Shown here piece after piece: positions 1,840 through 2,133 of a stretch of DNA of 32,000 nucleotides. Source of the DNA: Candidatus Hadarchaeales archaeon. GTDB lineage: Archaea; Hadarchaeota; Hadarchaeia; Hadarchaeales; Hadarchaeaceae. Numbering within the stretch: the stretch's first letter is position 1; every line of letters starts with the position of its first letter. The notes beneath the pieces are model-generated. The model made no database searches. It was not told the DNA's origin and was given only the letters and a program-made list of their open reading frames with translations. The position numbers and the translations under genes are program-made. The stretch is from the NCBI GenBank assembly GCA_038823825.1, contig JAWBCC010000003.1:101441-133440 (forward strand), read 5' to 3'.

Positions 1840-2133
1840 ATCCAAATAGGAGGGCCCCCGCTGTTCCCCGACACACTAACCCCCGGCTTCATCGTTTGCC
1901 TTTTCGGCGCTCTCCGCCAGGTAACCCTCATGGCGGGGATTCCACGGGGACCTGATCGCCTGTTCCGCACAGGGGTTGTCTTCGGGTCATGGGCAGACGG
2001 TTCGCCACTTCCTCCCCGAAGGACCCGTCCGCGCGGTTTCTCGGCGGTCATAGCTCCAGTGTCTCCGCGGCCTTGCCCAGCGTTCATAAAAAATCCCGCT
2101 GCCCTCGTAGCCGCGGAACTCCCCTCTCATCGC
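1840..2133 (-). ncRNA. Unclassified GC-rich structured RNA candidate (not SRP-like; only weak RNase P-like motifs)
   Basis: This intergenic island lies between the AEP gene and topA. By hand count over 1844-2133 it is about 63% G+C, with G 108 vs C 76 on the minus strand; the flanks look visibly AT-richer.

Only short Arg/Gly/Pro-rich ORFs overlap it. Minus-strand helices include:
- 2109-2118/2063-2072 (10 bp, 2 G.U)
- 2097-2101/2078-2082
- 2025-2031/1994-2000 (7 bp with an internal G.U that would be C.A on the plus strand)
- 1969-1973/1959-1963
- long-range 1933-1939/1855-1861 (7 bp)
- a terminal pairing 2122-2130/1846-1854

An oligo-U tract (CCUAUUUGGAUUUUAG) marks the 3' end near 1836-1850. 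An AT-rich TATA-like box (TTAAGTTAATA) sits about 24 nt upstream of 2133. An internal T6 run (2088-2093) allows a shorter ~220 nt model starting near 2064. Confidence 0.55.

Follow-up and report, generated by a model that had tools for sequence, protein, structure and literature searches.

In a 32,000-nucleotide stretch of a genome from a Candidatus Hadarchaeales archaeon (GenBank assembly GCA_038823825.1, contig JAWBCC010000003.1, positions 101,441 to 133,440; hereafter the window), a GC-rich island on the minus strand, at about positions 2137-1845, very probably encodes a three-hairpin box H/ACA guide small RNA (sRNA), the counterpart of Pf7/Pab40 (Rfam family HgcG) and of Afu4, as judged from sequence comparison. 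The RNA is of a kind already known and represents a diverged orthologue of Pf7/Pab40/Afu4, not a new RNA class. An original prediction, made from the letters of the window alone, had proposed a structured non-coding RNA of ~290 nt read from the minus strand, which 24 further full-length loci and covarying helices now support. The same prediction had placed the RNA outside known families. This does not hold, given a weak match along the full HgcG/Pab40 model and the same three-motif order, guide sequences, and predicted targets.

A weak full-length match to the HgcG family

We searched Rfam at gathering thresholds and then permissively, by E-value, over positions 1600-2400 and over the whole window. 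At gathering thresholds, no family matches in the window or in nine homologous loci. In the permissive search of 1600-2400, RF00064 (HgcG, Pab40), the family of a three-hairpin box H/ACA sRNA of Pyrococcus, is matched along its full model, positions 1-276. The match scores 19.7 bits, where gathering asks for 77, and its E is 0.003 on these 801 nt and 0.12 on the whole window. The alignment places hairpins 1 and 3 and includes the kink-loop/kink-turn (K-loop/K-turn) elements and ACA boxes, and the motif order of HgcG (a guide for the base of helix 89, motif 2, a guide for helix 69) is reproduced by the Hadarchaeota RNA. A check against Rfam that included the Hgc-type RNAs, as first suggested, therefore returns the right family along its full length at a score below gathering, so not as a confident match. 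The same permissive search of 1600-2400 yields a local match to HgcE that covers the last K-turn only. Neither RNaseP_arch nor Archaea_SRP matches, whether over 1600-2400 (E ≤ 10) or over the whole window (E ≤ 1), in line with the earlier view that the island is neither signal recognition particle (SRP) RNA nor ribonuclease P (RNase P) RNA. The other permissive matches in the whole window (fstAT, FinP, sn2343, and DAOA-AS1_2, E 0.57-0.87) we take as chance.

The RNA also has the form of its class. Three hairpins show the stem, internal-loop pocket, and stem arrangement of H/ACA RNAs, each with helices backed by covariation, and the pockets carry bipartite guide complementarity around an unpaired UN in rRNA. 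We considered a box C/D sRNA and rejected it: the leader sequence GCGAUGA resembles a box C, but its partner reads CUNGA and not CUGA, a C'/D' pair is missing, and the region matches no C/D family.

Homologous loci and hairpin anatomy

The topoisomerase I encoded beside the island is 54-57% identical to topoisomerases of Hadarchaeota metagenome-assembled genomes, which assigns the window to a divergent lineage of this phylum, and nhmmer with the RNA region finds the RNA in five of those genome loci, usually directly upstream of the topoisomerase gene and in divergent orientation. A metagenome scan with the most conserved 24-mer (GGGTCCTTCRGRGAGNNNNTGRCG) gave 53 loci, and a profile nhmmer search of all loci recovered 24 full-length copies besides the window (22 distinct sequences) and four partial ones; homologous regions in relatives, proposed earlier as a check, thus exist. 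The conserved block of the 24 further loci corresponds to window positions 2139-1852. We built two MAFFT alignments, A2 with 23 sequences and A5 for module 3, and numbered the hairpins (HP) from the 5' end of the RNA. Its main parts are as follows.

1845 to 2137, minus strand: whole RNA gene, ~290 nt, drawn from the conserved block and the weak full-length HgcG match, with putative ends
2156 to 2170, minus strand: TATA/B recognition element-like promoter element GUUAAGUUAAUACCC, ~25 nt upstream of the conserved 5' leader
2064 to 2117, minus strand: HP1, with lower stem 2110-2117/2064-2071, guides 2102-2109 and 2072-2077, upper stem 2097-2101/2078-2082, and K-loop 2083-2096, which contains a U6 run
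2060 to 2062, minus strand: ACA box of HP1, invariant in 23/23
1965 to 2036, minus strand: HP2, with lower stem 2029-2036/1965-1972, guides 2022-2028 and 1973-1979, upper stem 2015-2021/1980-1986, and a K-turn of GA 2013-2014 with CAU-GA 1987-1991
1961 to 1963, minus strand: ACA box of HP2, invariant in 23/23
1865 to 1939, minus strand: HP3, with lower stem 1934-1939/1865-1870, guides 1922-1933 and 1871-1881, upper stem 1916-1921/1882-1887, and a K-turn of GGA 1913-1915 with GAU-GAA 1888-1893
1862 to 1864, minus strand: ACA box of HP3, invariant in 21/21
1836 to 1852, minus strand: 3' tail with U tracts, CUCCUAUUUGGAUUUUA; homologues have AAUUU or U-rich sequence right after the basal helix

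The alignments support these helices strongly. The stems of HP1 are 97% paired over 23 sequences, with double changes present, the helices of HP2 are 98% paired, and five of the six pairs in the upper stem of HP3 covary. Taken by module, the 46 pairs of modules 1-2 are 97.2% paired, as against 33-42% with the partner slid, and eight are altered on both sides; the 27 pairs of module 3 are 88.3% paired, as against 33-55% slid, and 15 are altered on both sides. The two alignments together hold 23 base pairs altered on both sides. The guide strands are the most conserved single-stranded portions of the RNA; their variants include AAAUUGGGU, CAAGGGU, and ACGGGU in the 5' guide of HP2 and GCAUCA and GGCAAG in the 3' guide of HP1.

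The distance from the ACA box to the upper stem is 14 nt in HP1 (15 in the fold of the window's own sequence), 16 in HP2, and 17-18 in HP3, the last being 1-2 nt above the classical range. A spacing of 17 nt is workable (PMC7075261), and HP3 fits if its first unpaired guide base is left out of the count. HP1 and HP2 have invariant tandem GA/GA dinucleotides, and those of HP3 are conserved; the GA stems in A2 and A5 span 10, 9, and 9 bp for HP1, HP2, and HP3 (8 bp for HP1 of the window), within the required 8-11 bp. The spacing and GA-stem values agree with the published definition of the archaeal H/ACA motif (PMC4652768). The lower stems of HP1, HP2, and HP3 measure 7, 6-8, and 4-6 bp.

Four AUGA motifs, at 2130 (in the putative basal K-turn described below), 2087, 1990, and 1892, belong to K-turn elements, in keeping with the repeated K-turn-like protein-binding sites that had been envisaged, here in modules of ~60-90 nt; the sites themselves are predicted. 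The three-copy AUGA module offered in their support is rejected: only the copy at 1985-1992 is a conserved K-turn, whereas the copy at 2046-2053 is not conserved and the one at 1926-1933 lies inside a guide strand of HP3.

The promoter element aligns with a nearly invariant block in the homologues, AAACTTTTAGCC (A2 columns 10-22), and both element and leader are conserved, which bears out the suggestion of a transcript running from a TATA-like promoter to a U-rich tail. Oligo-U serves as a transcription termination signal in archaea, and the 3' U-rich tail is probably the termination region. A shorter model of ~220 nt, in which the internal U6 run would be the TATA box, is disfavored: U6 lies in the K-loop of HP1 and occurs only in the window and in locus L022, which is 99.5% identical, other species having UGAUCAAUGA- or GAUCAAUGA-type loops there, and the promoter and leader upstream are conserved. 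An oligo-U run within an archaeal RNA gene, here in the K-loop at 2083-2096, could bring some premature termination. A plus-strand reading was rejected, as only the minus strand accommodates the ACA boxes, the K-turn signatures, the G.U pairs, and the conserved promoter.

Predicted targets in 23S rRNA

We scanned a Hadarchaeales rRNA operon in locus L072, reached via the permease P0121 (L072/L073), together with the guide RNA of the same species in L071 (671-962); L071 is 99.7-99.96% identical to L072/L073. The introns of the L072 23S gene, after helix 69 and in domain V, were removed by homology beforehand. Some 950 U positions were scored for bipartite complementarity, with up to two guide bases skipped at the top of the pocket and two or three target bases left unpaired, and 300 shuffled guides per hairpin served as a control. 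The best sites are listed below, with unpaired target bases in brackets.

HP1, L071 guide: UGC[UAC]CUCGAU first, 3+6 bp, tied with GAUGC[UA]UCUU; 59/300 shuffles as good
HP2, L071 guide: AGGGUUG[UUC]GCCCGUU first, 7+7 bp, GGGUU[UA]GACC second; 2/300 shuffles
HP3, L071 guide: UAAC[UA]UAACCCUC first, 4+8 bp; 32/300 shuffles
HP1, window guide: UUUGC[UA]CCUCG first, 5+5 bp; 66/300 and 80/300 shuffles in two scans
HP2, window guide: GGGUUGU[UC]GCCCGU first, in the A loop, 7+6 bp; 0/300 shuffles
HP3, window guide: UAAC[UA]UAACCCUC first, the same site as for the L071 guide

The window guides and the L071 guides thus rank the same three sites first. The Escherichia coli numbering of these sites is a working assignment from an alignment to the E. 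coli sequence, checked on the spacing of yeast pseudouridines (Ψ) 2826/2865/2880 against Pab 2549/2588/2603. On this assignment, the HP1 site is position 2496 at the base of helix 89, the HP2 sites are U2554/U2555 in the A loop of helix 92, with U2586 ranked second, and the HP3 site is U1915 in the loop of helix 69; an alternative register of HP3 gives U1917. We further take the offset of Pab from E. coli numbering in domain V to be 92, which would equate Pab 2588 with 2496, Pab 2647 with 2555, and Pab 2678 with 2586.

Published work on the Pab40 group offers a direct comparison. Motif 1 of Pab40 guides Ψ2588 and motif 3 guides Ψ2016 in helix 69 (Muller et al. 2008, PMC2377435); all three motifs recur in Afu4, Pf7, and Pho40. 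For motif 2 of Afu4 and Pf7, Afu 2601 (equivalent to Pab 2647) was proposed first, and the site preferred by Muller et al. is Pab 2678, which corresponds to Haloarcula marismortui Ψ2621 (PMC2377435). Pab Ψ2016 corresponds to H. marismortui Ψ1956, and haloarchaeal homologues of stems II and III have been described (Grosjean et al. 2008, PMC2584109). The sites ranked first for HP1 and HP3, and both the first and the second for HP2, are exactly the sites established or proposed for the orthologous motifs. The chance that a top site falls on a prespecified one among ~950 U's is on the order of 10^-3 per hairpin.

We therefore have three target predictions, all made from complementarity. HP1 would guide Ψ at the 2496 equivalent (Pab Ψ2588), HP2 would guide Ψ at A-loop U2554/U2555, with U2586 as a weaker second site, and HP3 would guide Ψ at U1915 and possibly at U1917 too. 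Within a run, modification falls on the 5'-most unpaired U (Majumder et al. 2020, PMC7075261). By this rule U2554 would be modified with the consensus HP2, which leaves UUC unpaired, and U2555 with the HP2 of the window, in which an A pairs with U2554. HP1 may have a second target near E. coli U2613. Guide and target should also covary: species with AAUUGGGU in HP2 would have GCCCAAUU 3' of the A loop, and species with GCAUCA in HP1 would read GAUGC 5' of the target.

Three observations belong beside the scan. The consensus 3' guide of HP1, GCAUC, is fully complementary to GAUGC 5' of L072 mature position ~2722 (~E. coli U2613), giving 5+4 bp. The rRNA operon itself (L072 3289-10750; also L073 / L001 5037-6196) comprises 16S, tRNA, and 23S genes and is heavily interrupted, with insertions of ~920 nt in 16S after GGAUUAGAUAC, of ~850 nt in 23S directly past helix 69, and of ~810 nt near E. 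coli 2584 in domain V. An open reading frame (ORF) of the LAGLIDADG type is called at 9644-10096. Locus L001 holds a partial, intron-containing 16S gene ~2.8 kb downstream of the topoisomerase gene.

Comparison with known guide RNAs

The Hadarchaeota RNA is closest to Pf7/Pab40/Pho40 of the Thermococcales (RF00064). Both consist of three H/ACA motifs that follow one another in the same order and that all possess an ACA box and a K-turn or K-loop. Their guide strings are similar: CGAG for motif 1, AACCCU for motif 2, and GGGUUA/GUUA for motif 3. The targets of Pab40 motifs 1 and 3, Ψ2588 and Ψ2016, are those predicted for HP1 and HP3. The two differ in build. Thermococcales hairpins abut, each ACA box being followed at once by the next lower stem, whereas the Hadarchaeota RNA has basal helices and a fourth K-turn-like motif in its leader, and its lower stems (4-7 bp) are shorter than those of the Thermococcales RNA. 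Motif 2, unlike that of Pab40, finds its best match in the A loop.

Afu4 of Archaeoglobus fulgidus is likewise a three-motif H/ACA sRNA with motif 1 and 3 targets as in Pab40. The first-proposed site of its motif 2, Afu 2601, converts to E. coli U2555, within the A-loop site ranked first for HP2. Muller et al. judged this assignment for Afu4 to be inconsistent with the pairing rules (PMC2377435). In Haloferax volcanii, sR-h45 has two stem-loops that are homologues of Pf7 stems III and II; one directs both Ψ1940 and Ψ1942 in helix 69, and the other directs Ψ2605 (PMC2584109; PMC7075261). HP3 similarly permits two helix-69 registers, U1915 and U1917. The motif-2 homologue of sR-h45, unlike HP2, targets the U2586 equivalent, which ranks merely second for HP2.

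Two further comparisons are partial. The eukaryotic two-hairpin H/ACA small nucleolar RNA (snoRNA) snR10 of yeast guides 25S Ψ2923 in the A loop, and we take the HP2 target U2554 to be the equivalent position, beside a conserved Um/Gm. The analogy is one of target site only and implies no sequence relationship. Pab21/snoR9, like the Hadarchaeota RNA, joins an archaeal H/ACA motif and an extra L7Ae-type K-turn motif outside the hairpin in one transcript. The extra motif of Pab21, however, is a complete C/D box guide RNA 3' of the hairpin, whereas the Hadarchaeota RNA has a single K-turn-like clamp of leader and linker around HP1, with no D-box CUGA and no methylation guide.

Basal helices and a putative fourth K-turn

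Unlike in the Rfam HgcG consensus, the hairpins of the Hadarchaeota RNA do not abut; a further basal helix encloses each one. Because of these extra helices, all three ACA boxes sit in internal loops of roughly 5x4 nt, and the strand after each box pairs back to the 5' flank, a departure from the canonical drawing. Multihairpin RNAs are known to tolerate RNA 3' of the ACA box. In the literature, we did not find this closed-by-basal-helix architecture described for archaeal H/ACA RNAs. The basal elements are as follows.

2127 to 2135, minus strand: 5' leader, bulged strand of the basal K-turn; C-stem UUGC, bulge GAU, then GA
2050 to 2059, minus strand: HP1-HP2 linker, the other strand of the basal K-turn, CUG-GA-GCUAU; CUNGA-GC conserved
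2043 to 2049, minus strand: 5' strand of basal helix 2, GACCGCC, pairing with 1954-1960
1954 to 1960, minus strand: 3' strand of basal helix 2, GGCGAUC, directly after the ACA box of HP2
1944 to 1952, minus strand: 5' strand of basal helix 3, GGUCCCCGU, pairing with 1853-1861
1853 to 1861, minus strand: 3' strand of basal helix 3, GCGGGGGCC, directly after the ACA box of HP3

Basal helices 2 and 3 are well supported by covariation. Helix 2, in its alignment form GCCCACC/GGUGGGC, has 7 bp that are 96% paired, with three pairs altered on both sides. Helix 3, in the form GGYCCCCGW/WCGGGGRCC, is 98.4% paired, with all nine positions paired in 21 of the 23 sequences and four pairs altered on both sides; compensatory versions include GGCCUGCCG/CGGCGGGCC in L048/L024 and ...CGGCAGGCC in L018. 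It is kept as a plain hairpin in L022 and L069, both of which are without HP3.

Around HP1, the basal element takes a different form, in which leader UUGC-RAU-GA-A (2135-2126) faces linker CUN-GA-GCA(G) (2059-2050). The GC-RAU-GA of the leader is invariant in 23/23 sequences, the C-stem formed by the leader with 2050-2054 is 92% paired with UG, CG, and UA variants, and past the tandem G.A pairs G55.U128 and G56-C127 are 100% paired. The N of the linker CUNGA varies freely, in keeping with a 3n position. From this signature of C-stem, 3-nt bulge, and tandem G.A, we infer that leader and linker form a fourth K-turn. RNAalifold proposes instead an all-Watson-Crick register (U51.G130, G52-C129, A53-U128), which covariation does not separate from the K-turn register. 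The Watson-Crick register is the less likely of the two because column 129 varies freely, G and A included, while G130 and A131 are invariant.

Hadarchaeota are mostly thermophilic. With less support, we suggest that the basal helices and the basal K-turn stabilize the short lower stems and lock both ends of the RNA in a thermophile, and they may bind a fourth L7Ae. Tentatively, then, Hadarchaeota would have a clamped version of the Pf7/Pab40/Afu4 triple guide, with a basal helix per unit and a fourth L7Ae-type K-turn, in which HP2 guides A-loop U2554/2555; this combined proposal we consider possible rather than probable.

Proposed mechanism and alternative readings

By analogy with the family, each hairpin unit would place an internal-loop pocket between a lower and an upper stem and carry a K-turn or K-loop as well as an ACA box. 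L7Ae would bind at each K-turn, and Cbf5-Nop10-Gar1 at the lower stem and ACA box. The two strands of the pocket would pair with 23S rRNA on both sides of the target U, which, left unpaired, would be isomerized to pseudouridine by Cbf5. Assembly with L7Ae, Cbf5, Nop10, and Gar1 and formation of Ψ are thus predictions for the Hadarchaeota RNA.

Several observations weigh against its assignment as a guide RNA with these targets. The HgcG score of 19.7 bits lies far under the gathering score of 77, which none of the nine homologous loci passes either. The lower stem of HP3 has just 4-6 bp, where canonical motifs have 7-9 bp. The guides of the window were scored on the rRNA of L072 and not on that of the window's own organism. 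By the shuffle test alone, HP1 (59-80/300) and HP3 (24-32/300) are unexceptional, and the 3' guide of the same-species HP1 forms only 3 bp at the 2496 site, which ties with the site near E. coli U2613. The HP1 and HP3 targets carry weight because they coincide with known sites of the orthologous motifs.

Some eukaryotic H/ACA snoRNAs act as chaperones of rRNA folding or processing, and the Hadarchaeota RNA could similarly be an H/ACA-type ribonucleoprotein (RNP) scaffold whose main role is not, or not only, Ψ formation at the three predicted sites. The weak and tied same-species pairing of HP1 at 2496 (3+6 bp) would suit such a chaperone, or action at other sites, as would the 5' guide of HP3, which forms 10 bp with the intron-containing L072 precursor and 8 bp with the spliced junction. 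Canonical guiding, moreover, needs neither the extra basal helices nor a fourth K-turn. Yet the guide strands are the best-conserved single-stranded parts of the RNA, the top targets are the three sites documented for Pab40/Afu4, and the spacing from ACA box to pocket follows the catalytic rule, so that we regard this explanation as improbable beside that of a Pf7/Pab40/Afu4-type guide.

Still less probable, and already contradicted by the comparative data, is a chance resemblance to H/ACA RNAs in what would be a novel structured RNA, whether RNase P-like or the first of a new class. No Rfam family reaches its gathering score, and the original prediction pointed to RNase P-like fragments that are indeed in place: GGGGAGGAAGU at 2007-2017, GUGGAAUCCCCGCC at 1932-1945, GCGGGGG at 1855-1861, and GAUGAA at 1888-1893. 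So too are the three C(U/C)AUGA(C/G)(C/G) copies, the GCGGA copies, the U6 run at 2088-2093, the U-rich stretch at 1836-1850, and an AT-rich element upstream of 2133. The fragments, however, turn out to be parts of H/ACA hairpins, GGGGAGGAAGU being the 5' strand of the HP2 K-turn and GAUGAA the K-turn of HP3. The supposed P4-like pairing is replaced by a covarying basal helix, as GCGGGGG pairs, with compensatory changes, with 1944-1952 and not with 1932-1945. RNase P and SRP matches are lacking even at E ≤ 1, and the earlier check of the conserved regions CR-I and CR-V of RNase P RNA was negative too. Coincidence is further opposed by the guide complementarity, which recovers the Pab40/Afu4 sites, and by a structure of three independent hairpins that all possess a pocket, a K-turn, and an invariant ACA box.

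A small Arg/Gly/Pro-rich protein encoded by a 94-amino acid (aa) ORF at 1803-2087 (minus strand) is the least credible reading: this ORF is uninterrupted in the window and a 90-aa gene has been called over the L071 copy, but the one to five stops that break its frame in 22/22 homologues already refute it, it has no Pfam match, and substitutions compensate base pairs, not codons.

Implications

To judge from these comparisons, this is the first annotated H/ACA guide RNA for Hadarchaeota, uncultured and mostly thermophilic archaea of the subsurface. The Rfam HgcG model misses the whole Hadarchaeota clade, and an updated model could recover the RNA. The three-motif Pf7/Pab40/Afu4 guide appears to be conserved from Thermococcales and Archaeoglobales to Hadarchaeota, which supports an ancient origin of guided pseudouridines in helix 69 and the peptidyl-transferase center.

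The A-loop target predicted for HP2 is well supported, and the same-species match of 7+7 bp makes it a concrete prediction for a disputed target. If HP2 does guide the A loop, archaea would have an equivalent of the eukaryotic snR10 site, and the Afu4 assignment would be reinstated after its dismissal. As for architecture, the variation seen in the Hadarchaeota RNA is real in the case of the basal helices and probable in the case of the fourth K-turn. With such covarying helices and an extra K-turn, Cbf5 would have to recognize an ACA box without a free 3' side. The basic picture of H/ACA RNP function is unchanged.

Genomic context and variant loci

The island lies between two genes on the opposite strand.

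711 to 1796, plus strand: LigD-type primase-polymerase protein gene, next to the RNA; its 361-aa product combines the primase-polymerase domain (Pfam E = 8e-23) with a winged-helix domain
2206 to 4278, plus strand: topoisomerase I gene

Read from the minus strand, positions 1844-2133 contain A63 C76 G108 U43, or 63.4% G+C, compared with 46.0% across the whole window and 46-48% in the flanks; our recount reproduces the composition first reported (~63% G+C, G 108 vs C 76). Folding of the single sequence gives z-scores of -1.32 for the minus strand and -0.61 for the plus strand, which alone carry no significance, and a tRNA scan found no tRNA. Pfam gives no match for the overlapping ORFs (94, 69, 55, and 87 aa), and the frame of the 94-aa ORF is broken in all 22 homologues. 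A public gene call of 90 aa, without a Pfam match, lies exactly over the guide RNA gene in L071 (695-967, minus strand), a Hadarchaeales metagenome-assembled genome; the GC-rich RNA has probably given rise to a spurious protein annotation there.

Synteny with the topoisomerase gene is retained in many relatives, not all. In L071, nrdD and activase genes lie between the two, and in L005 the RNA is ~3 kb away from the topoisomerase gene and not adjacent to it. Locus L022 (1-5224) matches window positions 7159-1940 with 99.5% identity up to position 1940 and then diverges inside the RNA; it has a 16-nt loop in place of HP3, closed by the same basal helix, and different DNA beyond. L069 (13862-13979) has in common with L022 only the 112-nt HP2 module (99%) and the 3' part that lacks HP3, and its 5' side ends in another '...GGG ACA' hairpin. 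These two loci point either to a strain that has lost HP3 or to another, paralogous H/ACA locus with an identical HP2 module combined with a chimeric L022 assembly. Finally, in the metagenome contigs L018 (4600-4810, plus strand) and L048 (3060-3260, minus strand), the main RNA gene is accompanied at ~1.2 kb by a further copy that is partial, made up of the 3' half of HP2 and the whole of HP3, basal helix and ACA box included; in the main copy of both loci, the apical part of HP3 is divergent.

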